A DNA stretch of 64,000 bases, from assembly GCA_964453525.1 (NCBI GenBank), contig CAYVOV010000009.1, positions 64,686 to 128,685 on the forward strand. The letters run 5' to 3'. Every line of letters starts with the position of its first letter. Position 1 is the stretch's first letter. The notes under the pieces are model-generated. The model ran no database searches and was not told where the DNA came from. It was given only the letters and a program-made list of their open reading frames with translations. Shown piece by piece: positions 1-49,074 of this stretch. Made by a program: the position numbers and the translations under genes. Source of the DNA: an uncultured Dehalococcoidales bacterium (GTDB lineage Bacteria; Chloroflexota; Dehalococcoidia; Dehalococcoidales; UBA2162).

Positions 1-1463
1 ATCCATCACTTGAAGAGGTTAAAAAACTGAGTAAGGACGGCAATCTTGTGCCCGTTTACCGGGAAATAGTTGCCGACCTTGAAACACCGGTGTCCGCCTT
101 CATGAAGATTAACCGGGGCGGCTATTCTTTTCTGCTGGAGAGCGTCGAGGGAGGAGAAAGGCTGGCACGCTACAGCTTCATCGGTACCGAGCCGTACAAA
201 ACGCTGTCGGTCAGAGGAGAAGACAATTTAGACCCGCTGCCGCTTATTGCCGGAGAGATGGACAGGTTCAAAATAGTGCCGGTCGGCGAGCTGCCCAAGT
301 TCTGCGGCGGTGCCGTGGGCTATCTCAGCTATGAAACGGTGACGCGGTTCGAAGAGCTACCATCTCCGGGAAAAGACCCACTTGATTTGCCTGAATCGGT
401 ATTCATGTTCGTTGATACGGTGCTTATTTTCGACCACGTCACTCACAAGATTAGGGTAATGAGCCACGTCCATATCGACGGAGACATCGAGAAAGCCTAC
501 CGGGAAGCGGTTGCCAGGATTGATAACATGGTGGACAGGTTGAACCGGCCGCTTGGGCTGAGGCGGCAAATGAACGGGTCGCCAGCTCCCGCCGGAAAAT
601 CGGTACCTTCCTCAAACTTCACCAGGCAGGAATATGAAGCCGCCGTTGAGAAGATAAAGCAGTATATTACTGCCGGAGAAGCCATCCAGGTAGTGCCTTC
701 CCAGCGACTCTCCCAGACTACCACGGCGCCGCCTTTTGAAATCTACCGGGCGCTGCGTACCATTAATCCGTCCCCCTATATGTTTTATCTGGATTTCAAG
801 GACTTTCAGATAATCGGGGCTTCTCCGGAGATTCTGGTAAGGGTGGAAAACGGTATGGTGACAACCCGTCCCCTGGCGGGCACAAGGCCGAGGGGCAGGA
901 CACCGGAAGAGGATATCGCTCTTGAGCAGGAACTTCGCAATGATGAAAAGGAAAGAGCCGAGCACATTATGCTCGTCGACCTGGGGCGGAACGATATCGG
1001 ACGGGTAAGTGTGCCGGGCACGGTGGAGGTCAGCGAGCTTATGGAGGTGGAGCGTTACTCTCACGTTATGCACCTGGTGACAAACGTTCAGGGGAAATTG
1101 CGGCCTGATACCAGCGCCTTTGATGCCCTGCGCGCCTGTTTCCCGGCCGGAACTGTTTCCGGAGCGCCGAAAATCCGGGCGATGGAGATAATCGCCGAGT
1201 TCGAACCGGAAAAAAGAGGACCCTATGCCGGAGCCGCCGGTTACTTCTCTTTCTCCGGTGACATGGATATGGCAATCTCAATAAGGACAATGGTAGTCAA
1301 AGACGGAATTGCTTATACGCAGTCCGGTGGCGGGGTGGTCTACGACAGCGTGCCGGAACGCGAGTATGAGGAGACACTGAACAAGGCGAGGGCATCGCTC
1401 AATGCCGTGAGCCAGGCTGAAGCGTCTCAGGTAGAGGGGGAGAACAATGCTGCTTCTCATTGA
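1..1463 (+). CDS. trpE: anthranilate synthase component I (5' end outside window)
   Basis: The product has TrpE hallmarks (LLESVEGGERLARYSFIG, and C-terminal GAPKIRAMEII...GPYAGAAGYF). The frame stays open up to nt 3 (PSLEEVKKLSKDGNL...), so the true start lies upstream of the window. Confidence 0.95.
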   Translation, partial: PSLEEVKKLSKDGNLVPVYREIVADLETPVSAFMKINRGGYSFLLESVEGGERLARYSFIGTEPYKTLSVRGEDNLDPLPLIAGEMDRFKIVPVGELPKFCGGAVGYLSYETVTRFEELPSPGKDPLDLPESVFMFVDTVLIFDHVTHKIRVMSHVHIDGDIEKAYREAVARIDNMVDRLNRPLGLRRQMNGSPAPAGKSVPSSNFTRQEYEAAVEKIKQYITAGEAIQVVPSQRLSQTTTAPPFEIYRALRTINPSPYMFYLDFKDFQIIGASPEILVRVENGMVTTRPLAGTRPRGRTPEEDIALEQELRNDEKERAEHIMLVDLGRNDIGRVSVPGTVEVSELMEVERYSHVMHLVTNVQGKLRPDTSAFDALRACFPAGTVSGAPKIRAMEIIAEFEPEKRGPYAGAAGYFSFSGDMDMAISIRTMVVKDGIAYTQSGGGVVYDSVPEREYEETLNKARASLNAVSQAEASQVEGENNAASH

Positions 1464-1473
1464 TAGTTTCAAA
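1447..1473 (+). other. duplicated remnant of the trpG start (ATG overlapping the trpE stop)
   Basis: atgctgcttctcattgatagtttc encodes MLLLIDSF. The functional trpG start at 1637 encodes MLLLIDNYDSF. The remnant ORF then runs into repeat sequence. Confidence 0.7.
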
Positions 1474-1636
1474 AGTTCAAAAGCCGGGACTATTAAGTTT
1501 TGGTTGCCGGTGTCATTGCGAGCCCCGATTTATCGGGGTGAAGCAATCACCACGTTCGAAAGAGGAGATTGCTTCGTCGTCCCGATGGTATCGGGACGAC
1601 GAAGCAATGACAGATTAAGTGAATGTGGAGTGTGCC
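1474..1636. repeat. inverted pair of 'gtcattgc...gcaatgac' hairpin units inserted between trpE and trpG
   Basis: Unit 1511-1548 is gtcattgcgagccccgatttatcggggtgaagcaatc. Unit 1565-1611 is gagattgcttcgtcgtcccgatggtatcgggacgacgaagcaatgac. Each has an internal palindrome. Confidence 0.8.
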
Positions 1637-2212
1637 ATGTTACTGCTTATTGATAATTACGATAGTTTTACTTACAATCTCTTTCAGTACCTCAGCGAAC
1701 TGGGCGAAGAGGTTGAGGTGGTGCGTAATGATAAGACCACCATTGAGGAGATTGAAAAGATGGAGCCGGAGCGGATAGTTATATCACCCGGACCCTCCAC
1801 ACCGCAGAATGCCGGTATCTCAAACGATGTAATCAAGTATTTCGGTAGCAAACTGCCGGTGCTCGGCGTCTGCCTGGGACACCAGTGCATCGGCTACAGC
1901 TACGGCGGCATTGTAGGGCAGGCTAAACGGATAATGCACGGCAAATCTTCGATGATACACCATACCGGACAGGGCATATTTACCGGACTGCCCAATCCCT
2001 TCTCCGCCATCCGCTATCACTCACTGGTGGTGAAGCGGGAGGGACTGCCGGACTGTTTTGAGATTTCCGCCTGGACTGACGATGATGAAATTATGGGGCT
2101 GAAGCACAAACAACACCCGGTGGAAGGCATCCAGTTCCACCCTGAGTCTTTCATGACCCAGGCGGGGAAAGACATTCTTAGAAATTTTCTGAAAGTGGGG
2201 CGTAAGGAGTAA
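1637..2212 (+). CDS. trpG: anthranilate synthase component II (glutamine amidotransferase)
   Basis: MLLLIDNYDSFTYNL, GVCLGHQ (nucleophile Cys) and FHPES motifs. GGAG lies 7 nt upstream of ATG 1637. The ORF track begins at an upstream GTG (1619). Confidence 0.93.
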   Translation: MLLLIDNYDSFTYNLFQYLSELGEEVEVVRNDKTTIEEIEKMEPERIVISPGPSTPQNAGISNDVIKYFGSKLPVLGVCLGHQCIGYSYGGIVGQAKRIMHGKSSMIHHTGQGIFTGLPNPFSAIRYHSLVVKREGLPDCFEISAWTDDDEIMGLKHKQHPVEGIQFHPESFMTQAGKDILRNFLKVGRKE

Positions 2213-2227
2213 TAAAAAGTTGAGTGA

Positions 2228-2402
2228 ATTTCCCCCCTTTCGTAAAGGGGGATAAAGGGGGATTTTATAAATCCCTCTCGGTCTCCCCTTCGACAGGCTC
2301 AGGGCAGGCTCTTTACGAAAGGGAGAAGTTGGTGGGGTTTCGTCCTTCGACATGCTCAGGACGAGCGGTGCTGGATTCCAGCCTGCGCGGGAATGATAAA
2401 TG
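2228..2402 (+). repeat. composite intergenic repeat 'Rep-1' (copy 1) plus two extra hairpin units
   Basis: ccccctttcgtaaagggggataaagggggattttataaatccctctcggtctccccttcgacaggctcagggcaggctctttacgaaagggaga is shared with copies at ~12062, ~16345 and ~29150. It is followed by the cgtccttcgacatgctcaggacgag and ggattccagcctgcgcgggaatga hairpins. Confidence 0.85.
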
Positions 2403-2438
2403 TAGGCTAAAATAGGGCAAAGGTGAGGAGGTAGATAT

Positions 2439-3116
2439 ATGAAATGGAGTAAATCGCTCGACATATTTGCTATATTTATGCTTTATGTCATTGTCATTAC
2501 TATTGGCATCATTATGATAGTTTACTTAGTAGTGACTCCGAATCTTGAAACAAATGATAAAGTTGGAATTACAATGGCGATAAGCACGGTGGCACTTGTC
2601 GTTGTTACAGGTGTCTATGCTTGGCACACGCATAAAATGGCTGAGGAGATGAGAGAGCAAAGGATAATAACATCACGTCCAGTAATCATTTTAAAACCTG
2701 TACATGAAAAAGATATTTGGGAGGGAAGTACTAAGGATTATTTTTCACATTTTGAAATTTCTAATGTAGGAAATAGCCCTGCAATCGAGTTGGAAAGTTC
2801 ACTTACGGCCAATAAACATGATTACTCCAGTAGTATCCGACAAACATATTTGAGGAAAGATGATGATCCCGTTAAATTTCGCCCTTATAATATTTCGAGT
2901 CTGGAACAAAATAAAACATACTACCTTATTTGCGAATATCAAAACGTATTTCCTTATGATGTTCAAAAACCGTTCTATCAAACGTGTTTACCTTTTAAAA
3001 TGAGGGAATCCGGCGAAAAAGGAAAAATATACATTGTAGCTGGCGAATTAGAATTTACAGAAGTATCAGAAGAAGAACGTATTGATGCGTTCGGAAGTAG
3101 GAGTAAACCAAAATGA
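2439..3116 (+). CDS. hypothetical membrane protein (2 N-terminal TM helices; paralogue of 22700..23428)
   Basis: GGAGG lies 7 nt upstream of the ATG. There are two hydrophobic helices, then EQRIITSRPVIIL and FEISNVGNSPA motifs that are shared with ORF 22700. The gene is AT-rich (~33% G+C by hand count of one 60-nt line) inside the trp operon. Confidence 0.7.
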   Translation: MKWSKSLDIFAIFMLYVIVITIGIIMIVYLVVTPNLETNDKVGITMAISTVALVVVTGVYAWHTHKMAEEMREQRIITSRPVIILKPVHEKDIWEGSTKDYFSHFEISNVGNSPAIELESSLTANKHDYSSSIRQTYLRKDDDPVKFRPYNISSLEQNKTYYLICEYQNVFPYDVQKPFYQTCLPFKMRESGEKGKIYIVAGELEFTEVSEEERIDAFGSRSKPK

Positions 3117-3205
3117 TTAAAGAAGCAATTCAGACCATTATTGGTAACAGGCCGGCTACCAGCTGCTCCGTTCGCCCTTCGACAGGCTCAGGGCGAATGA
3201 TGTAA
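3113..3205 (+). other. duplicated remnant of the trpD RBS/start (30-codon ORF running into a repeat)
   Basis: atgattaaagaagcaatt (3113-3130) matches the real trpD start atgattagagaagcaatt (3819-3836) at 17/18 nt. MIKEAIQTII compares with MIREAISMLV. The ATG overlaps the stop of ORF 2439..3116 (ATGA). Confidence 0.75.
3168..3199 (+). repeat. 'Rep-2' hairpin (gttcgYcc-ttcgacaRgctca-ggRcgaac family)
   Basis: ccgttcgcccttcgacaggctcagggcgaatg lies 12 nt upstream of the GIY-YIG start. The same unit recurs at 3484, 3553 and 3749. Confidence 0.85.
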
Positions 3206-3210
3206 AGCAA

Positions 3211-3543
3211 ATGAGTTTTTGGGTTTATATTTTACTATGTGCAGATAACTCCTACTACACCGGACATACTGACAATCTTGAGGAGCGCATCGCTAAACAT
3301 CAGACCGGTGAAATTACCGGCTATACATCCAGCAGACGTCCGGTTAAATTACTTTTTACACAGGAGTTCTCCACCAGGGAGGAAGCTCTGGCCCGTGAGC
3401 GGCAGGTTAAAGGATGGCGTCGTAGCAAGAAGGAGGCAATGATACGGGGAGATTGGGATGAGGTGTCTCGCCTGGCTCATGAGGGTTCGTCCTTCGACAA
3501 GCTCAGGACGAACGGGTATCGACCAAAGATGAGTGAATGGTAA
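3211..3543 (+). CDS. GIY-YIG nuclease family protein (URI-domain, COG2827-like)
   Basis: FWVYILLCADNSYYTGHTDNLEERIAKHQTG...REEALARERQVKGWRRSKKEAMI is the canonical small GIY-YIG pattern. The last ~20 codons (SSFDKLRTNG...MSEW) are read from repeat sequence. Confidence 0.85.
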   Translation: MSFWVYILLCADNSYYTGHTDNLEERIAKHQTGEITGYTSSRRPVKLLFTQEFSTREEALARERQVKGWRRSKKEAMIRGDWDEVSRLAHEGSSFDKLRTNGYRPKMSEW

Positions 3544-3790
3544 ACCATGGGGGCCCGCCCTTCGACAAGCTCAGGGCGAACGGAAAACGGGCTCATCAAG
3601 AATGGAAAAGAGGCTCAGCATGAACGCATTTAAATCAAAGAAGAGTGAATAATAATCTCAGGACGAACGCATCTGAATCGAAGAGGAGTGAATGATAATC
3701 TCAGGACGAACGCATTTAAACCAGAGAGGAGTGAATAATAAACTTGTGGGCGTTCATCCTTCGACAAGCTCAGGACGAACGGATAATAAA
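3484..3790 (+). repeat. cluster of Rep-2 hairpins plus ~44-bp tandem units
   Basis: Hairpins at 3484-3515, 3553-3583 and 3749-3782. Tandem units ctcaggRcgaacgcatYtRaaYcRaagaRgagtgaatRataa at ~3502, 3613, 3657 and 3700. Confidence 0.85.
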
Positions 3791-3818
3791 GTATTAAATT
3801 AATGAACGGAGAAGAAAA

Positions 3819-4835
3819 ATGATTAGAGAAGCAATTTCAATGCTGGTTGAAGGGAAGTCACTATCCACAGATCAGGCAGCACAGGTGATGAATGAAATTA
3901 TGGAGGGTGAAGTGACCCCCGCACAGTTCGGCGCCTTTGTCACCGCTCTCCGGCTCAAGGGAGAGACGGTAGAGGAAATCGCCGGGCTGGTGAAAGTGAT
4001 GCGTGCCAAGGCTATCCCGGTACTCATCAAAGAGCCGGTGATTGACGTGGTCGGTACCGGAGGTGACGGCAAGAATACCTTCAATATCTCCACGGCTGCC
4101 GCCTTTGTTGTTGCCGGCGCCGGACTGAAGGTAGCCAAGCATGGCAACCGTGCTGCCTCGAGCCAGAGTGGCGCCGCCGACGTGCTGGAAGCGCTGGGAG
4201 TTAAATTCGACCTCAATGCCGAGCAGGTGCAGAAGTCGGTTGAGGAGGTAGGAATCGGTTTTATGTTCGCCCCGGCGTTTCACCCGGCGATGAAGTATGC
4301 CGGACCTCCCCGGCGGGAGATAGGTATCCGCACCGTGTTTAATATCATCGGGCCCCTGACCAATCCGGCCGGCGCCAGAACATACCTTCTGGGAGTCGCC
4401 GAGACTTCACTGGTTGAGAAACTGGCGCTGGTGCTGCAGAGCCTTGACTGCGAACACGCTCTGGTAGTCCACGGCGAGGACGGACTTGATGAAATCACGC
4501 TAACGGGGAAAAGCCAGGTCTGCGAGCTTAAAGACGGCAAAATTCATACCTATACAATCGACCCCGGAGACTTTGGTCTGGTAAAAGCCAGCCTGGATGC
4601 CCTGAAAGGCGGCACTGCCGAGGAAAACGCCACTCTGTTACGGGATATTCTCAGTGGGAAGAAAGGACCCCAGCGGGATATTGTTATTCTGAACGCCGCG
4701 GCAGCACTTGTGGCAGGAAATAAGGCTGAATCGGTTGAAGAGGGGATAAAGATGGCAATGGATGCGGTTGATAAAGGGCAGGCACTAGACAAGCTGAAAT
4801 GGCTTGTCGAATTCAGCCAGAGTTTTGCGGTATAA
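3819..4835 (+). CDS. trpD: anthranilate phosphoribosyltransferase
   Basis: VVGTGGDGKNTFNISTAAAFV and KHGNRAASSQSGAADVLEALG motifs. Sits in operon position after trpG. Confidence 0.95.
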   Translation: MIREAISMLVEGKSLSTDQAAQVMNEIMEGEVTPAQFGAFVTALRLKGETVEEIAGLVKVMRAKAIPVLIKEPVIDVVGTGGDGKNTFNISTAAAFVVAGAGLKVAKHGNRAASSQSGAADVLEALGVKFDLNAEQVQKSVEEVGIGFMFAPAFHPAMKYAGPPRREIGIRTVFNIIGPLTNPAGARTYLLGVAETSLVEKLALVLQSLDCEHALVVHGEDGLDEITLTGKSQVCELKDGKIHTYTIDPGDFGLVKASLDALKGGTAEENATLLRDILSGKKGPQRDIVILNAAAALVAGNKAESVEEGIKMAMDAVDKGQALDKLKWLVEFSQSFAV

Positions 4836-4871
4836 CGGAGGTAATATTATAACAGGAGTTTCACAGTTAAT

Positions 4872-4988
4872 GTCATTCTGAGTGAAACGAAGAATCTCGG
4901 GGTGGGGAAGATAATATACTTAAAACCCCACCATGCCGAGACCCTTCGCGGAGTTTGCACTGAGCAGAGCGAATGTGCTCTGGGTGAC
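4872..4988. repeat. inverted pair of 'gtcattc...gaatgac/gggtgac' family hairpin units between trpD and trpC
   Basis: gtcattctgagtgaaacgaagaatctcggggtgggga (4872-4908) and ccccaccatgccgagacccttcgcgg...ctctgggtgac (4926-4988). Confidence 0.75.
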
Positions 4989-5012
4989 ATGACTCTACCA
5001 AGAGAGTAAAAA

Positions 5013-5789
5013 ATGATTCTTGATGAGATAGTCGAATATAACCGGACGGAGCTTGGGAATGTGAAGAGCAGTGTTCCGCTGGAAGAGCTGCGGAAGGCTA
5101 CTCTCGGGCAGCCTGAACCGCTTGACTTCGCCACAGCGCTACGTGGCGATGGTATCCGGCTGATTGCCGAGGTCAAGAAAGCCTCGCCTTCCCGGGGAGT
5201 AATCCGCGCCGATTTTAGTCCCGTGGAGATTGCCCGCACCTATGCCGCTAACGGTGCCTCCGCCATATCGGTATTAACAGAGGAAAAGTACTTTCAGGGC
5301 AGTCTTGATTATCTCAGGGATATCAGGGACGCTCTGGGAGATAATAAAATACCCCTGCTGAGGAAGGACTTTATCTTCGACTCCTACCAGGTTTACCAGG
5401 CAAGAGCTTACGGCGCTGATGCTTTACTGCTTATCGTGGCTATCCTGAGTCCTGAGAAACTGGACGAGCTGCTTTCGTTGAGTCACCGGCTCGGCATGAA
5501 GTGTCCTGTTGAAGTCCACAATGAGGCTGAGCTTGAAACTGCCCTGAAATCCGGGGCTGGTATAATCGGTATAAATAATCGGGACCTGACCACTTTTAAA
5601 GTGGATATTTCCACCACCCGGCGTTTAAGGCGCCTTATTCCCGGAGATAAAATAGTGGTCAGTGAAAGCGGTATAAAGACCCGTGACGATATTAAGAAGA
5701 TGAAAGATTGGGGTGTGGACGCCGTGCTGATTGGCGAAGCCCTGATGGCCTCAACCGATATTGCGTCTAAGATTAAGGAGTTGCTGTGA
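5013..5789 (+). CDS. trpC: indole-3-glycerol phosphate synthase
   Basis: IAEVKKASPSRG, LLRKDFI and IGINNRDL motifs; operon context. Confidence 0.95.
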   Translation: MILDEIVEYNRTELGNVKSSVPLEELRKATLGQPEPLDFATALRGDGIRLIAEVKKASPSRGVIRADFSPVEIARTYAANGASAISVLTEEKYFQGSLDYLRDIRDALGDNKIPLLRKDFIFDSYQVYQARAYGADALLLIVAILSPEKLDELLSLSHRLGMKCPVEVHNEAELETALKSGAGIIGINNRDLTTFKVDISTTRRLRRLIPGDKIVVSESGIKTRDDIKKMKDWGVDAVLIGEALMASTDIASKIKELL

Positions 5790-6430
5790 CGAAGGTAAAA
5801 ATATGCGGGCTGTCCGAGGTCGAGCACGCGCTGGCTGCCGCCGAAGCGGGCGCCGATTTCCTGGGAGTGATGTTCGCTCCCAGCCGCCGCCAGGTTACGC
5901 CGGAGAGGGCGGCGGAGATAGCCGGGGCGGTCCATAGCCTGGAAAACCCGCCGGAGGTGGTCGGTGTTTTCGTTGACCTGCCGGCTAAGGAGGTCAACGA
6001 AATCGCAGCTAAGTGCGGACTTGACCGGGTGCAGCTCAGCGATGGTGAGGACTGGTCATACTGCCTTGAAATTGAGAGACCGGTTACAAAAGTAGTCCAT
6101 ATAGTGGAAGGAAAGAAAGCTTCAGAAGTTATTGCAGAGATAGAAGAGGGTTATAAAGTGGTCTCAAAGAAGGACGTTATCTGTCAGCTGGATACACAGG
6201 TTGGAGATGTATACGGCGGGACGGGACAGACTTTTAACTGGGAGCTGGCAGGGGAAGCAGCCAGTAAATTCCAGATTATGGTTGCCGGAGGACTGACCCC
6301 TGAAAACGTCGGTCGGCTCATCACCGAGGTCAATCCCTGGGGAGTGGATGTCTCCTCGGGCGTTGAAACAGATGGCAAAAAGGATATTAAGAAGATTATA
6401 GAGTTTATCAATAGAGCGAAGGGGGGTTAA
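5786..6430 (+). CDS. trpF: phosphoribosylanthranilate isomerase
   Basis: VKICGL...GADFLGVMF...GVDVSSGVE. 4-nt overlap with trpC. Confidence 0.92.
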   Translation: MTKVKICGLSEVEHALAAAEAGADFLGVMFAPSRRQVTPERAAEIAGAVHSLENPPEVVGVFVDLPAKEVNEIAAKCGLDRVQLSDGEDWSYCLEIERPVTKVVHIVEGKKASEVIAEIEEGYKVVSKKDVICQLDTQVGDVYGGTGQTFNWELAGEAASKFQIMVAGGLTPENVGRLITEVNPWGVDVSSGVETDGKKDIKKIIEFINRAKGG

Positions 6431-7618
6431 TTGATACAGGGTAAAAGAGGATATTTCGGGAACTACGGGGGACAATTCGTCCCGGAGACACTGATGCCGG
6501 TGCTCGACGAGCTGGCGGAAGCTTACAGGCAGGCGAATGCCGATGCCGCTTTCTGGGCTGAGTTCGATGCGCTGTCCCGCGACTATTCCGGCAGGCCGAC
6601 TCCGCTTTATCTGGCGGAAACGCTGACCAGGCATTGCGGCAGCGTAAAAATCTACCTGAAACGGGAAGACCTGGCTCACACCGGAGCCCATAAGATTAAC
6701 AATGCCCTGGGTCAGGGCTTGATGGCTCAGAAAATGTGCAAACGGAGGATTATTGCCGAGACGGGGGCAGGCCAGCATGGAGTGGCTGTGGCGGCAGTTT
6801 GCGCCAAGCTGGGTCTGGATTGCATCGTTTATATGGGAGAGGAAGATGTCAGGCGGCAGTCGCTTAACGTTTTCCGGATGAAACTGATGGGTGCCGAGGT
6901 AAGACCGGTTGCCGGGGGCAGCCGGACACTCAAGGATGCCATCAATGAGGCGATAAGGGACTGGGTGACGAACGCCAGGGATACGTATTACCTTCTCGGT
7001 TCGGTCGTCGGTCCTTACCCGTATCCAATGATGGTGCGCGACTTTCAGTCGGTAATCGGCAAGGAGACAAGGCAGCAGATACTGGACAGGGAAGGACGCC
7101 TGCCTGACTACATAGTTGCCTGTGTCGGCGGCGGCAGCAATGCCATCGGCATTTTCTATCCTTTTATTGATGATAAGGAAGTGAAGCTAATCGGCGTGGA
7201 GGCTGCCGGAAGGGGAATTGAAAGCGGGGAACATGCCGCTTCGCTGGCGGAGGGAAGAGTGGGAGTCCTCCACGGGGCAAAGTCATACGTTCTCCAGGAC
7301 AGTGACGGACAAATCAGGGAGACGCACAGTGTCTCCGCCGGACTCGATTATCCCGGGGTGGGACCCGAGCACAGCTACCTGAAAGACACCGGACGAGCAA
7401 CCTATGTTGCCGTGGATGACAAAGAAGCCCTCGAAGGTTTCCAGCTTCTTTGCCGGACGGAAGGTATTCCACCGGCCCTTGAATCGGCTCACGCCATAGC
7501 CTATACCGCCGCTATGGCGCCGTCTCTCGATAAAGAACAGATTATCGTCATCAACCTTTCCGGAAGGGGAGATAAAGATATGGGTATTGTCGCCGATGAA
7601 CTGGGGGTGAAGCTGTGA
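6431..7618 (+). CDS. trpB: tryptophan synthase beta chain
   Basis: [22 protein letters not shown] (PLP lysine) and GGGSNAIG motifs. TTG start immediately after the trpF stop. Confidence 0.96.
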
Positions 7619-8403
7619 GCCGTATTGACACTGTCTTTAAAAAGTCGGGGCACACGGCTCTTATTGCCTACGTTACCGTCGGCTACCCCAGCCTTGCGGC
7701 TACGCTGAAGGCTGTCCCGCTACTTGCAGCCGGCGGCTGCGATATTATCGAGCTTGGTATCCCCTTCTCCGACCCCCTGGCTGACGGAGTTACGATACAG
7801 GCATCCAGTTTCCACGCCCTCCAGAATGGCGTCACGCCTAAAAGTTGCCTGGAGATAGCCGGAGAGTTGAGCAACAAAGTGGACGTACCACTTGTCTTCA
7901 TGACCTATTATAATCCTGTTTTCAGCTATGGTCTTGAGAAGTTCTGCAGCGACTGCGCCCGGTCCGGCATTGACGGCTTGATAATCCCTGACCTGATTCC
8001 GGAGGAAGGTACGGATATGGAATCCTGCACCGGAAAGCAGGGACTTGACCTCATCTACCTGCTGCCGCCGACAAGTACCGAAGCTCGCCTGCGGCTGGTA
8101 GCCGAGAAGTCGAGCGGATTCATCTACCTTGTCTCGGTAACCGGTATCACCGGTGCCAGGGACAGGCTGCCCGCAGACCTCGAAGCATTCGTCAGCAGGG
8201 TCAGGGAGCAGACCGGTAAGCCGCTTTGTGTAGGTTTCGGTATATCCACTCCGGAACAGGCAGGTGAGGTTGCCCGGATTGCCGACGGTGTTATAGTTGG
8301 CAGCCGGATAGTCCAGTATATGGAATGCGATGAATCACTTGCCGAGATGGAGAAATTTGTCAGAGAACTAAGGCATGCTCTCGACAGGACCGATAAGAAT
8401 TAG
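7615..8403 (+). CDS. trpA: tryptophan synthase alpha chain
   Basis: [23 protein letters not shown] and [10 protein letters not shown] motifs. 4-nt overlap with trpB. Confidence 0.95.
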
Positions 8404-8474
8404 GCATTACACACTTGCAGGAGCCCGGTACTGAATTAATCAGGTAAGCCGGGTAGTTTATCTGGAAAACAGGA

Positions 8475-8508
8475 GGCTGGATACACTTGAATGTATCCAG
8501 CCTTTATA
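8475..8508. terminator. intrinsic (bidirectional) terminator hairpin between the convergent trpA and the 8534 ORF
   Basis: ggctggataca-cttgaa-tgtatccagcc forms a perfect 11-bp stem, followed by tttata. Confidence 0.7.
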
Positions 8509-8533
8509 GAATACCGATGTTATGAATTCCGGC

Positions 8534-8674
8534 TTAACCCTTCCCGATCCTGAACATCTTAGTCCCGCATGATGGGCAGGTTCCCTGGGTTGCTGGTTTG
8601 CCATTCTTCATCGTTATGGCTTTCGGGTCTTTCATTTCTTTTTTAGCGCGACATTTTACACAATATGCTTCCAT
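8534..8674 (-). CDS. small zinc-ribbon protein (DUF5679-like)
   Basis: MEAYCVKCRAKKEMKDPKAITMKNGKPATQGTCPSCGTKMFRIG has a CxxC...CxxC ribbon. The start is taken at the internal Met rather than the track start (8734). Confidence 0.6.
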   Translation of the reverse strand: MEAYCVKCRAKKEMKDPKAITMKNGKPATQGTCPSCGTKMFRIGKG

Positions 8675-8862
8675 TCGACTGGCCCTCCTTATTATTTGGT
8701 TAGAAAGCATAAACTTTTTTCGGCTGAATGTCAAGTGAAAATGAAGCTGAAAACAAGGAAATTATTAAAAAATTAATATTAATTTCATAATTAACCAGTA
8801 TCGGCAGTGATAAAGGCAATTTCATTGATTGGCTGAAACCAGTATGATATAGTTTATGTACT

Positions 8863-10086
8863 ATGGAAACAGCCGAAATTGAATTCATTTCCGGTGGTAC
8901 AGTTACAACTCCTGAAGGCTTTTTTGCCGGAGCTGTACATGCCGGAATTAAGAAAAGTCCAGAAGATGATAAACTGGACCTCGGTATTCTCTATTCTGAG
9001 GCACCCTGTACGACCGCCGGGATATTCACCAGCAGCAGGATTCAGTCGGCACCGATAATACTCTGCCGAGAGAGAATAAAGAAGGGTAGAGCGGTGGCGG
9101 TAATAGCAAACAGCGGCTGCGCCAATGCCTATACCGGCGAGCAGGGGCTTGCCGATGCTGCCGAGATGGCCGCTCTCGCCGCCAATGGTATCGGAGCAGC
9201 GCCGGAGGAGGTCCTCGTCGCCAGTACCGGCGTTACAGGTCAACTGCTGCCGATGGATGTGATAAGAGCCGGGATTGAAAAGATAGCACTCTCCCAGGAA
9301 GGCGGCCACCAGCTTGCCCGGGCGATAATGACTACCGATACCGTTCCCAAGGAGGCGGCGGTGGCTGTTAAATCCGGTGACGGCGAGTTCACAATCGGCG
9401 GAATAGCCAAGGGTTCAGGAATGATTCATCCTGATATGGCGACGATGTTTTGCTTTCTGACGACCGATGCTGCCGTTGAGCTTGAATTCTTGAGGTCGGT
9501 ACTGAAAAAAACAGCGGACATTTCTTTTAATATGATTTCCATTGATGGCGATACCAGCCCGAGTGATACGGTTTTGCTCATGGCTAACGGCCTGGCGGGG
9601 AATGAGAGCATAAAAGAAGGCAGCCCTCTGGCGGATACATTCCAGCAGGCACTCGAAAAGGTCTGTATATACCTGGCAAAAGCCCTTGCTCGTGATGGTG
9701 AAGGAGCGACAAGACTCATCCAGGTAACAGTTAACGGGGCCGGTAGCGATGCAGACGCTAAAAAGGCGGCGAAATCAGTGATAGGTTCGACCCTTGTCAA
9801 GACGGCCGTATATGGGGGCGACCCGAACTGGGGACGGATTATTATGGCACTGGGGCACAGTGGAGTTGGCATGGAGTTAGAGGATATCGACCTCTCAATC
9901 GGAGACGTAAACGTTTTAAAGGGCGGCAAACCTCTTTCTTTCAAAGAAGAGGATGTTATCCGTGTTTTCAAACAGGAGGAAGTACCGATAAGGGTGAACC
10001 TGAACGGGGGCGCGGCCTCGGCTACCGCCTGGGGTTGCGACCTCTCCCAGGATTACGTGGTGATAAACAGTCAGTATATGACCTGA
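8863..10086 (+). CDS. argJ: bifunctional ornithine acetyltransferase / N-acetylglutamate synthase
   Basis: NSGCANA, IMTTDT and ATMFCFLTTDA (autoprocessing Thr region) motifs. Confidence 0.93.
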   Translation: METAEIEFISGGTVTTPEGFFAGAVHAGIKKSPEDDKLDLGILYSEAPCTTAGIFTSSRIQSAPIILCRERIKKGRAVAVIANSGCANAYTGEQGLADAAEMAALAANGIGAAPEEVLVASTGVTGQLLPMDVIRAGIEKIALSQEGGHQLARAIMTTDTVPKEAAVAVKSGDGEFTIGGIAKGSGMIHPDMATMFCFLTTDAAVELEFLRSVLKKTADISFNMISIDGDTSPSDTVLLMANGLAGNESIKEGSPLADTFQQALEKVCIYLAKALARDGEGATRLIQVTVNGAGSDADAKKAAKSVIGSTLVKTAVYGGDPNWGRIIMALGHSGVGMELEDIDLSIGDVNVLKGGKPLSFKEEDVIRVFKQEEVPIRVNLNGGAASATAWGCDLSQDYVVINSQYMT

Positions 10087-14889: not shown

Positions 14890-16253
14890 GCAATATACGC
14901 GGTCGGTTTCAAAAAGACGCCGATAATGCAGCAGCGCAATATACCACATCGATTTCCTGTGACTGGCGACTCTACTCCTACGATATTGCCGGTAGCATCG
15001 CTCATGCCCGGATGCTGGCCAAACAGGACATAATTACCAACCAGGAAGCGGAGGCAATTGTTAAAGGGCTGGAAACTATCGGTAGGGAAATAGAAGAAGG
15101 CACCTTCAAATTCAAACCGGAGCTTGAAGACATCCATATGAATATAGAAGCCGGACTGATTGAGAAAGTCGGCGAGGTGGGGGGCAAGCTCCATACTGCC
15201 CGCTCCAGAAACGACCAGATTGCCCTGGATATGCGTTTATTTACAAGAGACGCAATTAATGACACGCTATCCGCTCTGAAGAAATTCCAGCAGGCTTTAA
15301 TAAATCTGGCTGAGGCAAACCGGGATGTGATTATGCCCGGATATACTCATTTACAGAGAGCGCAGCCGGTCTTATTCGCCCATCACCTGCTTGCCTATTT
15401 TGAGATGCTGCAGCGAGATGCTGAGCGGTTCAGTGACTGCTTGAAGCGGGCGGATGTTATGCCCCTCGGCAGCGGGGCTGTTGCCGGTGTTGCCTATAAT
15501 ATCGACCGTGAGTTCCTGGCTAAAGAGCTTGGTTTCAGTCGGGTAAGCGGTAACAGCATGGATGCTGTCTCGGACCGGGACTACATCATCGAGTATGAAG
15601 CTGCAGCAAGTATCTGCATGATGCACCTCTCCCGCCTGGCCGAGGAGATTATTCTCTGGTGCTCAGCCGAGTTCGATTTTATTGAGCTTGATGATGCCTA
15701 TGCCACCGGCAGCAGCATTATGCCGCAGAAGAAAAATCCGGACATCGCCGAGCTTGTCCGGGGCAAGACGGGACATGTTTACGGCAGCCTGGTGGCTTCA
15801 CTGACTATGATGAAGGCTCTGCCGCTTTCCTATAACCGGGATTTGCAGGAGGATAAGGAGGAATTCTTCGACTGCGTGGATACGTTGCTCTCAAGTTTGG
15901 AGGTATTTACCGGGATGGTTGCCACCCTGCGGATTAAAGCCGAAAACACCGGTCAGGCAGCCGGAGAGGGATATATACTGGCTACCGACCTTGCCGACTA
16001 CCTTGTGAAGAAGGGAGAAGCCTTCCGGAACGCCCATGATATAGTTGCCAGGCTGGTAAGCTATGCCGAGGAAAAAGGTAGTTCCTTTGATAAGATTACC
16101 CTGGACGAATATAAAGAATTCTCATCCATGTTTGAAGATGATGTTTTCTCGGTTACCGTGAAGTCGTCTCTTGAAGCAAGGGATAACATCGGTGGTACCG
16201 CTCCGAAGCAGGTAGCGGAGGCGCTGAAACGCGCCAGGAAAATGATAGGTTAG
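14886..16253 (+). CDS. argH: argininosuccinate lyase
   Basis: LHTARSRNDQ, GYTHLQRAQP and GSSIMPQKKNPD (fumarate-lyase signature) motifs. 4-nt overlap with argG. Confidence 0.96.
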   Translation: MSNIRGRFQKDADNAAAQYTTSISCDWRLYSYDIAGSIAHARMLAKQDIITNQEAEAIVKGLETIGREIEEGTFKFKPELEDIHMNIEAGLIEKVGEVGGKLHTARSRNDQIALDMRLFTRDAINDTLSALKKFQQALINLAEANRDVIMPGYTHLQRAQPVLFAHHLLAYFEMLQRDAERFSDCLKRADVMPLGSGAVAGVAYNIDREFLAKELGFSRVSGNSMDAVSDRDYIIEYEAAASICMMHLSRLAEEIILWCSAEFDFIELDDAYATGSSIMPQKKNPDIAELVRGKTGHVYGSLVASLTMMKALPLSYNRDLQEDKEEFFDCVDTLLSSLEVFTGMVATLRIKAENTGQAAGEGYILATDLADYLVKKGEAFRNAHDIVARLVSYAEEKGSSFDKITLDEYKEFSSMFEDDVFSVTVKSSLEARDNIGGTAPKQVAEALKRARKMIG

Positions 16254-16344: not shown

Positions 16345-16505
16345 GTGAAGAGGGACAAAGCCCCTTCTCCAAGACCAATATCCCCCTTTTTAAAAGGGGG
16401 ATTAAGGGAGATTTAATCATAAATCCCTCTCAATCTCCCCTTCGACAGGCTCAGGGCAAGCTCTTTACGAAAGGGAGAGGTTAAAAAGGAATTTTGGAGA
16501 ATGAC
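16345..16505 (+). repeat. Rep-1 composite repeat (copy 3)
   Basis: gaagagggacaaagccccttctccaagaccaatatccccctttttaaaagggggattaagggagatttaatcataaatccctctcaatctccccttcgacaggctcagggcaagctctttacgaaagggagaggttaaaaaggaatttt. Confidence 0.9.
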
Positions 16506-22699: not shown

Positions 22700-23428
22700 G
22701 TGAAAATGATTAATAATACTATCAAGATTGGATTGAAAGTAATAATTGTTCTGTGTTTACTAACGCTTCCAATCGTATTTATATCGCTGTGGAATGTACC
22801 TTTGGCTCAAAGTATATTCCCGTTCCTAGAAATTTCAACAGAATTCCCCTCAAAAATAATCGCTGGTTACACTGCGGTATTAGCTTGGGCTACAATATTA
22901 CTCGGATATTTTGCTTTTTCCACGATACAAAATAATAAAGAGCAAAGGTTAGACAGTTTTCGTCCTTTACTTGTACCAGCTGGTGGCTCACTTGGTATTG
23001 GATATATAAAACACTCAGAATCAGGATATGAGAGTCTCTCAGGTGAAAACATGCTTCATGTGCACAATATCGGTGTGGGACCTGCCGAAAATATAGCCAT
23101 ACGACTGGAACTACGGTCTGATAAAGGAGCACATAATGTTCAATTGGATGAGATGTTAACTTTCGTTGAGCCGCTTGCATCAGGTCATAAGGGAATAGTT
23201 CGTCAATGGAAGACCATTGAACAGGAGGTTGAAATCTACGATGACCATTGGCTAGTTATTAGCTATGATGACTTGTTCCACCGTCATTTTGAGACGGAGG
23301 CTCGATACATAAAGGAAAGTTGTAGTTGGGTAAGTATGAGAACCATACAAGTAAGAAAACTTCGTCCGCGCGGAAGGGATATAGATTACTACTCAGGTCT
23401 TTCTGGCGATAGCGAAGAACAGAATTAA
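22700..23428 (+). CDS. hypothetical membrane protein (2 N-terminal TM helices; paralogue of 2439..3116)
   Basis: Starts 3 nt after the recG stop. Two hydrophobic helices are followed by EQRLDSFRPLLV and LHVHNIGVGPA motifs, matching ORF 2439. AT-rich relative to its flanks. Confidence 0.7.
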   Translation: MKMINNTIKIGLKVIIVLCLLTLPIVFISLWNVPLAQSIFPFLEISTEFPSKIIAGYTAVLAWATILLGYFAFSTIQNNKEQRLDSFRPLLVPAGGSLGIGYIKHSESGYESLSGENMLHVHNIGVGPAENIAIRLELRSDKGAHNVQLDEMLTFVEPLASGHKGIVRQWKTIEQEVEIYDDHWLVISYDDLFHRHFETEARYIKESCSWVSMRTIQVRKLRPRGRDIDYYSGLSGDSEEQN

Positions 23429-23486
23429 GTTATGATTAGGTAGCAGTACAGGTTTTTCCCTGTTAAGGATAAGCCAAGGAGTATCT

Positions 23487-23507
23487 AAGAGGGGCTTCGC
23501 CCCTCTT
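23487..23507 (+). terminator. GC-rich UUCG-loop hairpin ('Rep-3' core), terminator-like
   Basis: aagaggggc-ttcg-cccctctt followed by cctagtttcttcc, 59 nt after the stop of ORF 22700. Confidence 0.4.
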
Positions 23508-23517
23508 CCTAGTTTCT

Positions 23518-23688
23518 TCCCCCTCTCCTTTGATAAAGGAGAGGGGGATACAGGGGGTGAGGTTTCATTAATTTTATTGCCTGCTCCACCCTGAGATTCT
23601 TCGCCCACCAGAGGTGGGCTCCAGAATGACACCATGTGATTTGTCATGCTGGAGGGAGCGCAGCGACCGAAGCATCTCAGGGAGGGGG
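23518..23688. repeat. Rep-3 second hairpin plus an inverted pair of 'ccaccctgagattcttcg...ccagaatgac' units
   Basis: cccctctcctttgataaaggagagggg; unit 23584-23630; inverted variant gtcatgctggagggagcgcagcgaccgaagcatctcagggaggg at 23643-23686. Confidence 0.85.
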
Positions 23689-23723
23689 TTAGAGAACAGC
23701 GGTCACGTGGTATAATCACTTTC

Positions 23724-24032
23724 GTGAAACAATATTATGTTTACATTATGTCTAATAAATCCGGCACTTTGTATACCGGGATAACTAATGATTTGGAGCA
23801 GCGTGTCTGCCAACACAAGAGCCAGCAAATCGAAGGTTTTACTAAAAAATACAGAGTTACCCACCTTCTATATTTTGAGTCCACTGATGACGTTACTACG
23901 GCAATTATGAGAGAAAAACAAATAAAAGGAATGCTAAGAAGTAAGAAAATCGAACTGATAAAAACAATCAATCCGCAGTTGAAAGATTTAAGTGGGGACT
24001 GGTTGGATAAGAATGGCACCTCCCCACCCTAA
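23724..24032 (+). CDS. GIY-YIG nuclease family protein (URI-domain, COG2827-like)
   Basis: KQYYVYIMSNKSGTLYTGITNDLEQRVCQHK...REKQIKGMLRSKKIELI. GTG 23724 is chosen so that the first beta-strand (YYVYI) is included; the start is uncertain (track ORF starts at 23646, ATG at 23748). TGgTATAAT lies at 23708-23716. The stop codon lies inside the downstream repeat. Confidence 0.8.
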   Translation: MKQYYVYIMSNKSGTLYTGITNDLEQRVCQHKSQQIEGFTKKYRVTHLLYFESTDDVTTAIMREKQIKGMLRSKKIELIKTINPQLKDLSGDWLDKNGTSPP

Positions 24033-24205
24033 GATTCTTCGCCCACCAGAGGTGAGCTCCAGAATGACAGTTGAGTTTGCGATTACCGCATCACCCGCCG
24101 AAGGCGGACTCCTCACAACGACAAAGGAAGTGCTCCTTGCAATGACAGAAGAAACACTTCTGTGCAATGACAGAGGAAATGCTACATACCATGACACATT
24201 GATTA
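24021..24205 (+). repeat. direct copy of the 45-nt unit plus a run of short '...gcaatgac' hairpin units
   Basis: tccccaccctaagattcttcgcccaccagaggtgagctccagaatgac (24021-24068) differs from 23584-23630 at about 2-3 positions. It is followed by cccgccgaaggcgg, aaggaagtgctccttgcaatgac and agaagaaacacttctgtgcaatgac. Confidence 0.85.
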
Positions 24206-24451
24206 CCCCCTCCGGTCAGCTTTGTGTTATAATTTTTGGGTTGACACCTCAGATAACTCAGACCGGAGGATACTGACACGGAAATACTTGAAATACGGAA
24301 TAGATTAGCCGGGCTTTTAAACGGGGCGGCGGCTGAAGCCCAGAAGGCAGGCTCGCTGCCCTCGGTAGCTTTACCGGAGGTAACCATTGAGCGTCCCCAG
24401 AATCCGGAGCACGGAGACTATGCCTCAAGCTTTGCTCTAAGACTGGCGAGA

Positions 24452-25948
24452 GTGGCCGGAAAGAAGCCAATGGATATTGCCGATGACCTGATAAGCCTGA
24501 TTGCTCCCGGTCCGGAGATTGAGAGTATTGTTACCGCTGAGCCGGGATTCATTAATTTCACTCTGAGCGGCGAATGGCTTGCCAGCCAGGTTGAAACAAT
24601 CCTGAAAACCGCTGATAGCTACGGTAATATCGACCTCGGTAAAGGCAGCCGGGTGCAGGTAGAGTTCGTCAGCATCAATCCAACCGGACCTCTGCACGTC
24701 GGGCACGGACGTGGCGCCGTTCTCGGCAGCACACTGGCAGATGTGCTGGCTGCGGCCGGGTATAACGTGGAGAAGGAGTATTACTTTAACGATGCCGGCA
24801 ACCAGATGGACGCCTTTTACCGCTCACTGTACGCCCGTTATGTGCAGGCTATGGGCAAAGATGTGGAAATGCCTGATGATGGCTACCACGGCAATTACAT
24901 GGTCGATATGGCAAAAGAGCTTGTAACCACTGAAGGAGACCGCTTTCTCAAGCTTGGCGAGGCTGAGGCTATTGTCGAACTTGGCAAACTGGGGCTGGAG
25001 AAGGTTATTAGCGGAATTAAGGATGAGCTCCACCTTCTCGGAGTTACCTTCGATAGCTGGTTTACCGAGCGCAGCCTGTACGAGAACGGCCAGTATGACC
25101 GGGTTATGGAGTTGTTGCGTCAGGGAGGTTTTATCGCCGATAAGGAAGGTGCCACCTGGTTTGTTTCAACTGCCCTCGGTGAGGATAAAGATAATGTGGT
25201 GGTGAGGGGGGACGGCTCACCCACTTACTTTGCCACCGATATCGCCTATCATTATAACAAGTTTATCGAGCGTAAATTCGACCGGATAATTGACATCTGG
25301 GGCGCTGACCACCAGGGTCATGTTCCCCGTCTCAAGGCAGCCGTTGGCGCTCTCGGCATTGACCCCGAACAACTTGAGATTATTATTCACCAGATGGTAA
25401 CCCTGCGGCGCGGCGGCGAGATAGTCCGAATTTCCAAGCGCAGCGGAGATATGATTACCCTGAGTGAGCTTATAGAAGAGGTAGGAAAAGATGCCTGCCG
25501 TTTCTTCTTTTTAGCCCGCTCGGCTAACAGCCAGATGGACTTCGACCTCGAGCTGGCTAAAAAAGAATCGCAGGACAATCCCGTCTACTATGTCCAGTAC
25601 GCTCACGCCCGTATCGCCAGTATCCTCCGCCTGGCTGAAGAGAGAGGGATTGATTACAGTGACGGGGACGTTTCACTGATAAAGACCGAGCCGGAGCTAA
25701 CCCTGATACGCAAGCTGTTACTCCTACCGGAACTCATCGAGCTTGCAGCCCGGAATCTGGAGCCTCACCACCTCACCTATTACGCTCAGGACCTGGCTAC
25801 AGTATTCCACAGCTTCTACAAGCAGTGCCGGGTGGTATCGGATGATGCTGCCCTTACCAAAGCTCGATTGAAGCTTGTCGAGGCAGCAAAGATAGTCCTG
25901 GCAAGAACCCTTCACCTGATGGGAATGACTGCTCCGGAGAGGATGTAG
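24452..25948 (+). CDS. argS: arginine--tRNA ligase (conserved N-terminus continues upstream to ~24260 without a canonical start)
   Basis: [15 protein letters not shown] (HIGH) and the C-terminal anticodon-binding region. The in-frame upstream translation [14 protein letters not shown]...[20 protein letters not shown] is typical ArgRS N-terminus. The GTG at 24452 is only the first canonical start codon. Confidence 0.9.
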
Positions 25949-48842: not shown

Positions 48843-49039
48843 GTCATTCTGCCCTTTGTCAAGTATGTAGTAAACTACAGCGGGAACCCGGAATTTCTAC
48901 ACTGTCATTCCCGCACCGTAAAAAGCACGGGGTAAACTCCAAGCGGGAATCAAGTACTACCACGCCGTCATTCCAGCGGAAGCTGGAATCCAGCGGGGGA
49001 AAACGGGGTCTGGATTCTCGGGTCAAGCCCGAGAATGAC
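48843..49039. repeat. array of 'gtcattcc...ggaatc / attctc...gagaatgac' hairpin units
   Basis: gtcattcccgcaccgtaaaaagcacggggtaaactccaagcgggaatc; gtcattccagcggaagctggaatc; tggattctcgggtcaagcccgagaatgac. Confidence 0.85.
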
Positions 49040-49074
49040 ATCAAGCAGCAATCTCGAAAGGGGGATAATGAATC

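Follow-up and report, generated by a model that had tools for sequence, protein, structure and literature searches.

The closest described counterparts of the element considered here belong to the Ssn family, site-specific GIY-YIG nucleases of ~94 amino acids (aa) that cut single-stranded DNA (ssDNA), but neither double-stranded DNA nor RNA, next to hairpin repeats of 20-50 nt (NTS/SRM) flanking their own gene (Chenal, 2025, PMC11893778). The same paper likens this architecture to an insertion sequence and raises the idea that hairpin-ssn-hairpin units are mobile now or were so once; it reports no mobility, insertion polymorphism or target duplication and offers no evidence of insertion (PMC11893778). 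In the IS1202 group, target-site duplications of 16-28 bp have already been termed 'unusually long' (PMC10132070). Our subject is a GIY-YIG gene with its hairpin repeats (hereafter the cassette) in the trp operon of an uncultured Dehalococcoidales bacterium, analysed within a stretch of 64,000 nucleotides of contig CAYVOV010000009.1 (hereafter the window). The cassette stands between two copies of the start of trpD, and in the reading to which we lean this duplication arose together with the insertion.

Two other kinds of system invite comparison. Some integrating elements bring with them a substitute gene end, as do phage 21 and e14 in icd and the islands that enter tRNA genes. Free-standing GIY-YIG homing endonuclease genes, of the Seg/Mob type of T-even phages, form the other kind, and homing does not duplicate its target.

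The resemblance to Ssn is the closest. The cassette protein is likewise a single-domain GIY-YIG protein (93 aa vs about 95 aa), hairpin repeats of ~30 nt lie on both sides of its gene and are found, singly or in clusters, at other places in the genome, and, as in Neisseria, they enclose a variable gene for a membrane protein. The cassette thus appears Ssn-like, with Ssn/SRM as the nearest known system. It differs in its hairpin (CCGTTCGCCCT, 11-nt loop, AGGGCGAACGG), which falls outside the published SRM pattern HGTCWYN(0-2)YYVSBRHN(0-5)WNVSBRGN(0-2)RNCYNB: no CCGTTCGCCC-type hairpin matches it, and the window holds only two matches, at 22141 and 49040. It differs also in that both filled and empty sites are seen at the trp locus, where the gene is younger than its flanks and host sequence is duplicated over a long stretch. 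With the IS1202 group the locus shares host DNA directly duplicated on both sides of a repeat-bounded insert; however, the trp duplication measures at least 47 bp and probably ~115 bp, is not a regular feature of the element's other copies, and goes without a transposase. Between 3116 and 3819 the GIY-YIG ORF (open reading frame) is the only one with a recognisable domain, and none of the known transposase classes (DDE, HUH/Y1, serine or tyrosine) is represented there. The cassette does not fit a classical insertion sequence or transposon in this respect or for want of a fixed short target-site duplication (at least 47 nt at trp, no host duplication at the other cassettes tested). As in phage 21, e14 and the tRNA-gene islands, insertion into a gene is tolerated by means of a second copy of the gene end, with a dead fragment left on the other side; here, however, there is no integrase or att core, it is the 5' end that is restored together with its ribosome-binding site (RBS), and the duplicate probably includes a relic of the upstream gene. 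Presence or absence at one site (four filled vs nine empty loci) and a nuclease gene younger than its flanks recall the Seg/Mob genes, but the 93-aa protein lacks a DNA-binding domain, and the likely substrate of such a nuclease would be its own hairpin, not the empty site.

The trpD start on both sides of the cassette

The two copies share a 21-mer, AAAATGATTA[A/G]AGAAGCAATT, which lies at 3110-3130 (AAAATGATTAAAGAAGCAATT) and 3816-3836 (AAAATGATTAGAGAAGCAATT), flanks the cassette and agrees at 20 of 21 nt (paired by the repeat finder as 21 nt, 95% identity, family D5); GGAG precedes each copy. From the ATG onward 17 of 18 nt are identical, as the original prediction had it; the left copy, too, had been read correctly in sequence, though it begins at 3100 and not, as was then said, at 3097, 3 nt earlier. 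Direct reading likewise bore out that the left ATG (3113) overlaps, as ATGA, the TGA of ORF 2439-3116, which encodes a protein with two transmembrane helices (the 2-TM gene). This ATG does open a dead-end ORF of 30 codons (3113-3205), which was thought to terminate in the first hairpin but crosses it and ends 5 nt before the GIY-YIG ATG (3211). The features of this part of the operon are the following (L089 and L090 are two of the related loci described below).

2277-2371, + strand: two hairpin-repeat copies in the spacer between trpG and the 2-TM gene, same family as the cassette hairpins (repeat families D1/D3)
2439-3116, + strand: 2-TM gene, low in GC (35%), two transmembrane helices and a beta-sandwich domain; TGA overlapping the left trpD-type ATG
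3100-3130, + strand: left copy, RBS (GGAG 3100-3103) and trpD start, ggagtaaaccaaaATGATTAAAGAAGCAATT; ancestral 2-TM/trpD junction
3113-3166, + strand: trpD' remnant of ~18 codons (MIKEAIQTIIGNRPATSC) inside the dead ORF, from codon alignment with the L090 and L089 remnants and intact TrpD N-termini
3169-3199, + strand: hairpin H1, 10-bp stem and 11-nt loop; abuts the remnant; loop inverted relative to L089/L090
3211-3543, + strand: GIY-YIG ORF (PF01541, E 2.5e-20), catalytic domain aa 3-74, last ~17 codons reading through H2
3485-3513, + strand: hairpin H2, where the block of high conservation between the window and L089/L090 ends on the right
3553-3584, + strand: hairpin H3, solo copy
3614-3741, + strand: three tandem 43-bp units, each with the hairpin 3' half only (CTCAGGACGAACG) plus AAAGAnGAGTGAAT (family D2)
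3751-3781, + strand: hairpin H4, last repeat before trpD
3786-3807, + strand: AT-rich spacer before the right copy, homologous to the L089 spacer (z 2.9)
3808-3836, + strand: right copy, RBS (GGAG 3808-3811, 7 nt before the ATG) and trpD start, ggagaagaaaaATGATTAGAGAAGCAATT
3819-4835, + strand: intact trpD (anthranilate phosphoribosyltransferase; PF02885 and PF00591)

That the two starts resemble each other by chance or convergence could be suspected, given AT-rich starts in this genome and strong conservation of the trpD N-terminus. The control took 50 putative gene starts of the window and compared the 21-mer around each with its best match in the 1.2 kb upstream: the other 49 starts gave 11-15 of 21 nt and trpD 19/21 in the register of the control (20/21 in the best register), so that the similarity stands well above that of other starts, a doubt which the original prediction had itself raised. 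Moreover, the left copy is orthologous to the empty junction of relatives and the same remnant occurs in three other genomes. Chance similarity is refuted by these comparative data, and the probability left to it is negligible. Conservation does set a limit to what the identity means: nucleotide conservation of the six opening TrpD codons (MI[KR]EAI) extends to all Dehalococcoidia orthologues examined, and therefore the 17/18 match identifies both copies as trpD starts and is not evidence of recent duplication. Past nt 18, the copies are alike at the protein level only (MIKEAIQTIIGN vs MIREAISMLVEGK).

The uninterrupted junction that was to be sought in relatives is present at nine cassette-free loci (L001, L082, L083, L084 and L171-L175; L001 apart, these are contigs of 2-TM homologues, paired as L083/L084, L171/L172 and L174/L175). 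All have the order trpG, 2-TM gene, trpD, with a 4-nt overlap of the 2-TM stop and the trpD ATG (ATGA), and none carries a duplication. The conserved junction reads ...tgaYgc.ttc.g.aGtaggagtaaRccaaaATGATTAAAGAAGC..., and the left copy of the window matches that of L173 at 29/30 nt upstream of the ATG, hence it is the left copy that represents the original trpD start.

Three further loci hold a GIY-YIG cassette at the same site with a dead trpD start on its left, so that, with the window, the same filled site is seen in four lineages. L089 (trpG, 2-TM gene, GIY-YIG, trpD) and L090 (trpG, 2-TM gene, 30-aa ORF, GIY-YIG, contig end) were found on contigs of the closest GIY-YIG homologues, and L092 (trpE, trpG, 2-TM gene, trpD', GIY-YIG, trpD) in a survey of 80 cassette loci from metagenomes. 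Over ~18 codons the left remnants can be aligned codon for codon (window MIKEAIQTIIGNRPATSC, L090 MIKEAIQSVVENKSATSY, L089 IINERIRAVIENRSVTSC), that of L092 reads MIKEAIQTVVSGKSLT and then a stop, its ORF ending ahead of the hairpin, and all resemble the TrpD consensus MIKEAIxxLVxGKSLT. In the window, L090 and L089 the remnant abuts the hairpin at ...AGCTnnT|CCGTTCGCCC. Since the likeness to the TrpD N-terminus extends up to the hairpin, the insertion point lies ~54 nt (18 codons) inside trpD. The empty and filled loci together thus uphold the original prediction of an insertion within trpD with its target duplicated, but not its placing just inside the start. Between lineages the remnant is 67-78% identical, with no indels, which is below the divergence expected from saturated synonymous sites, the 54 nt being too short for dating. 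In L089 the remnant has lost its ATG (mutated to ATA); the duplicating event appears to be old and shared.

The extent of the duplication is seen best in L092, where the left and right copies match at 41/47 nt (87%; 89% on blastn rescoring). Ahead of its right copy L092 also retains gtaaaccaaaATG and a stretch of ~66 nt that is similar to the 2-TM 3' end found in other lineages (z 3.0-3.6, a score attained by 0.7-1.7% of shuffles); the resident 2-TM gene is a different allele from this relic. This stretch indicates that the duplication reached back into the upstream 2-TM gene. The original duplication probably measured ~115 bp including the 2-TM 3' end, with at least 47 nt found in L092; it does exceed the classical target-site duplications, as had been predicted, and is longer than the ~20-35 bp then proposed. 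In the window, a 33-nt AT-rich stretch separates H4 from trpD, and its part at 3786-3807 may be what decay has left of the duplicated 2-TM 3' end.

We also considered whether the left copy is functional, for example a leader ORF, translated through the hairpin from the former trpD RBS and start and coupled to a GIY-YIG ORF that has no Shine-Dalgarno sequence of its own. In the window and L090 the left ORF has the same length (30 codons, no indels) and ends 5 nt before the GIY-YIG ATG, and the 20 nt before that ATG contain no Shine-Dalgarno-like tetramer in either locus. Some translational hitch-hiking of the GIY-YIG gene on the left ORF is possible in these two loci; a functional left copy we find highly improbable, given the ATG lost in L089 and the L092 ORF that stops before the hairpin. 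Upstream ORFs ending near the GIY-YIG ATG occur in 25/80 loci, a count that comes with no null model. A trp attenuator leader was rejected because the 30-aa ORF contains no Trp codon. On the same three grounds (lost ATG, early stop, no Trp codon), the left copy is a decaying trpD remnant, a relic and not a leader.

The younger nuclease gene and recombination at the locus

The trp operon occupies the start of the window on the + strand: trpE (48-1463), trpG (1619-2212) and trpD (3819-4835) are followed by trpC, trpF, trpB and trpA. The closest matches of TrpD, at 57-72% identity, come from metagenome-assembled genomes of Dehalococcoidales and Dehalococcoidia, and an independent Logan assembly (L081) is identical to window 3616-8943 over its whole length, its contig breaking within the repeats upstream of trpD. 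The trpG-trpD interval of 1.6 kb is absent from the compact relative L002, where trpG abuts trpD; in the window it runs through the hairpin repeats 2277-2371, the 2-TM gene, the 30-codon ORF, H1, the GIY-YIG ORF, H2, H3, the 43-bp units, H4 and the spacer. The 14-mer AAAGAnGAGTGAAT of the 43-bp units recurs after the trpG stop (2216-2229), and the trpE-trpG spacer contains a perfect 19-bp inverted repeat (1568-1608; 3-nt loop) that belongs to a different repeat family.

The GIY-YIG protein consists of the single domain PF01541 (aa 3-74) in 93 aa, its homologues having 92-110 aa; a search of NCBIfam gave no family for it, and among solved chains the UPF0213 proteins 1zg2 and 1ywl come closest (E 5e-16). 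The hairpins have a stem of 9-10 bp and an asymmetric 11-nt loop (CCGTTCGCCCT / TCGACAAGCTC / AGGGCGAACGG), and their stems fold as ssDNA with a free energy of -5.6 to -8.8 kcal/mol and covary (G-C/A-T at pair 5, T-A/C-G at pair 6, C-G/G-C at pairs 7 and 8). The 17-nt hairpin core has nine exact matches in the window and one with 2 mismatches, against 0.05 expected. In most of 83 related loci the GIY-YIG ORF stands between copies of one hairpin family, with a hairpin at a median of 62 nt upstream and another starting almost at the ORF end. In 36 loci the two hairpins nearest the ORF are inverted; in 26 they are direct, as they also are in the window, and the rest show other arrangements. An Rfam scan of 1300-4100 at E<=1 found no family, hence no group I/II intron or known hairpin RNA there. 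No terminator-like site was found on the + strand inside the cassette, which makes operon read-through plausible; with GGAG 7 nt before the ATG in the right copy, trpD is probably still expressed from the operon transcript through its own initiation site.

The GIY-YIG gene is far younger than its flanks and the junction, to judge from sequence divergence. Among the window, L089 and L090, its pairwise synonymous divergence (dS) is 0.37-0.64, against 1.4-2.7 for trpG and trpD, while comparisons of L092 with the other three give 1.6 to saturated. In a sliding comparison the block of high identity (84-92%) runs exactly from H1 to H2, between flanks of 64-81%. These two results indicate that the nuclease gene was replaced or re-acquired between the hairpins after the host lineages had split. 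The ratio of non-synonymous to synonymous divergence is 0.10-0.18 when the window, L089 and L090 are compared with one another (0.06-0.08 against L092, where divergence is near saturation), which shows the protein to be under purifying selection. The H1 stem is the same in the window (3169-3199), L090 (1785-1815) and L089 (4977-5007), and the loop is inverted, TCGACAGGCTC in the window vs GAGCTTGTCGA and GAGCTTGTTGA in L089/L090, which looks like a loop flip between the palindromic arms or a replacement by a copy of opposite orientation.

As for the 2-TM gene, a low-GC gene of this type (35% in the window vs about 55%) lies inside the trp operon of many Dehalococcoidales and overlaps the stop and start codons of its neighbours (window 2439-3116; L082 4001-4750; L090 1061-1732; L092 2106-2837). 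The search with its protein returned 142 homologues, but no Pfam or NCBIfam family and no informative structural neighbour. The two hairpin copies at 2277-2371 mean that this gene, too, is bracketed by hairpin repeats on both sides. Its product is hypervariable: window and L090, which have the left junction in common and share 91% identity in both the GIY-YIG gene and TrpG, differ to the point of 31% aa identity in the 2-TM protein. The trp locus, on this comparison, recombines.

Recombination also offers an alternative account of the duplication, namely the import of a related genome's cassette together with the 5' end of its trpD, integrated through a single homologous crossover within trpD and a single join of the illegitimate or short-homology kind. 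The left copy would then be the recipient's first ~18 codons and the right copy the donor's, and the duplication would travel with the cassette as its left homology arm. Besides the 31% vs 91% contrast just described, such an import would agree with the L092 right copy, which holds the 3' end of a 2-TM allele other than the resident one, with the likeness of the window's left copy (MIKEAIQT) to L001/L082/L092 and of its right copy (MIREAISM) to L003, and with the interleaving of filled and empty lineages in trees. We nevertheless consider it rather unlikely: the original structure must still form once, the window and L089 show no rise in trpD 5' identity beside the cassette, and no donor configuration was found.

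Origin of the duplication

On balance, and with modest confidence, we consider that the duplication arose together with the insertion. At an ATGA overlap, or within the first codons of trpD, a simple insertion would destroy this essential biosynthetic gene or deprive it of the RBS located in the upstream gene; both genes stay whole only if the junction is duplicated, and presumably no other kind of event would survive selection at this overlap. The course of events may be pictured as follows. In the ancestor of a Dehalococcoidales subclade, with the order trpE-trpG-(2-TM gene)-trpD and the trpD start overlapped by the 2-TM stop (ATGA), an Ssn-type hairpin-repeat/GIY-YIG unit would have entered trpD ~54 nt inside, duplicating the target from the 2-TM 3' end (at least 16 nt and probably ~66 nt before the ATG) to about trpD codon 18. 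The left copy would leave the 2-TM gene whole, while the right copy would supply trpD with its Shine-Dalgarno sequence, ATG and first 18 codons. The redundant halves would then decay, the left trpD' to the dead 30-codon ORF and the right 2-TM relic to an AT-rich spacer; the hairpins would multiply, and the GIY-YIG gene between the two inner ones would later be replaced or re-acquired. The duplication itself could be made either by filling in breaks that are widely staggered or, at a fork stalled by a hairpin, by template switching; selection would then keep the rare duplicating outcome.

The same structure could be reached in two steps. A spontaneous tandem duplication of ~100 bp over the 2-TM/trpD junction, by slippage or unequal exchange, would be neutral, and its novel joint, the only dispensable DNA in a packed operon, would later be colonised by hairpins and GIY-YIG. 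The GIY-YIG block is indeed younger than its flanks, so the ages of cassette and junction may differ, hairpin repeats of the cassette family occupy many spacers in the window, and other cassettes lack long duplications of host sequence. However, 0/9 cassette-free junctions are duplicated, and at each of the four filled loci the two copies enclose the repeats exactly, no stray part of the duplication lying on the wrong side. We therefore hold the two-step origin to be unlikely, if deserving of serious attention.

Several points weigh against a joint origin of duplication and insertion. We know of no mechanism that gives 50-120-bp target duplications for such a unit. Flanking direct repeats of at least 40 nt occur at 5/83 GIY-YIG loci (114, 102, 47, 47 and 44 nt); outside the trp locus these long repeats (L157, L122, L170, L136) consist of hairpin-cluster sequence and not of host genes, so a long host duplication is not a general signature of the element. 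Among the 83 cassette loci, no duplications of host sequence were found except in the window and L092, both at the trp junction. The figure of ~115 bp comes from L092 only, the right-hand spacers of the window and L089 scoring no higher against 2-TM 3' ends than dinucleotide shuffles. The copies in L092 are also far more alike (87%) than those in L089 (about 54%), a gap that needs gene conversion, a refreshed remnant or a second event. Finally, in single-gene neighbour-joining trees (trpE, trpG, trpD, trpC) filled and empty lineages interleave, and the trees are mutually incongruent and poorly resolved, for which reason one event followed by losses is not separable from recurrent events.

A bolder proposal, which we regard as decidedly doubtful, goes beyond the joint origin and makes the hairpin/GIY-YIG unit an active mobile element: its insertion, or hairpin-induced fork stalling with template switching, would make direct duplications of ~50-115 bp, and the duplicated trpD start would serve as a portable homology arm that spreads the filled allele by recombination into relatives with the conserved MIKEAI start. 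If true, the element would combine nuclease and hairpin with a novel chemistry of insertion and a homing arm of its own making. The 7 nt (CGTTCGC) that trpD codons 13-15 of some empty loci share with the hairpin 5' arm were examined as possible microhomology and dismissed, being off the junction and within chance.

Other cassettes and the meaning of the trp insertion

A second, similar arrangement lies at 22700-24470 of the window, where a weakly similar gene of the transmembrane/beta-sandwich kind (22700-23428) is followed by a second GIY-YIG gene (23724-24032), 34% identical to the first and flanked by direct copies, ~48 nt long, of a different hairpin (GTCATTCTGGAGCC type, 23583-23630 and 24019-24068, - strand). 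Next to it, the argS frame extends over 24253-24452, ~65 codons upstream of the first canonical start (GTG 24452) and through the typical ArgS N-terminus; GGAGGA is present, but no ATG, GTG or TTG, and the extension could reflect translation from a non-canonical start, faulty assembly or damage connected with the cassette next to it. At 48900-49070 three clustered hairpins come very near the NTS consensus of Neisseria (e.g., CGTCATTCCAGCGGAAGCTGGAATCCAG), and one of them matches the SRM pattern. A weak tblastn match to the C-terminal part of the GIY-YIG protein (16008-16115; 39% over 36 aa, E 0.11), ~330 nt from the hairpin copy at 16439, may mark a decayed cassette.

Three unrelated metagenomic loci have a GIY-YIG ORF between direct repeats of 114, 102 and 44 nt (L157 1943-2495, L122 428-1096 and L136 283-688, respectively; 87-100% identity) made of hairpin-cluster sequence, and it looks as if a bare ORF had been placed into a duplicated repeat unit. 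In another locus (L121 2-3004) the cassette directly abuts a gene end: the stop of an upstream ORF of at least 1000 codons, which runs off the locus start and has the C-terminus ...VLYTIFFRIRDERQQLA, overlaps the GIY-YIG ATG (ATGA).

To the idea of once or still mobile hairpin-nuclease units, the trp locus adds a clean comparison of filled and empty sites in a conserved operon, with a nuclease gene several-fold younger than its flanks. Its duplication is far longer than any insertion-sequence duplication that we found in the literature or know of. Insertion into two translationally coupled, overlapping genes becomes tolerable once the junction exists twice, each copy retaining only the half still required. 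If further insertions with long duplications exist, they would point to an undescribed mechanism of insertion, possibly linked to ssDNA or to replication.

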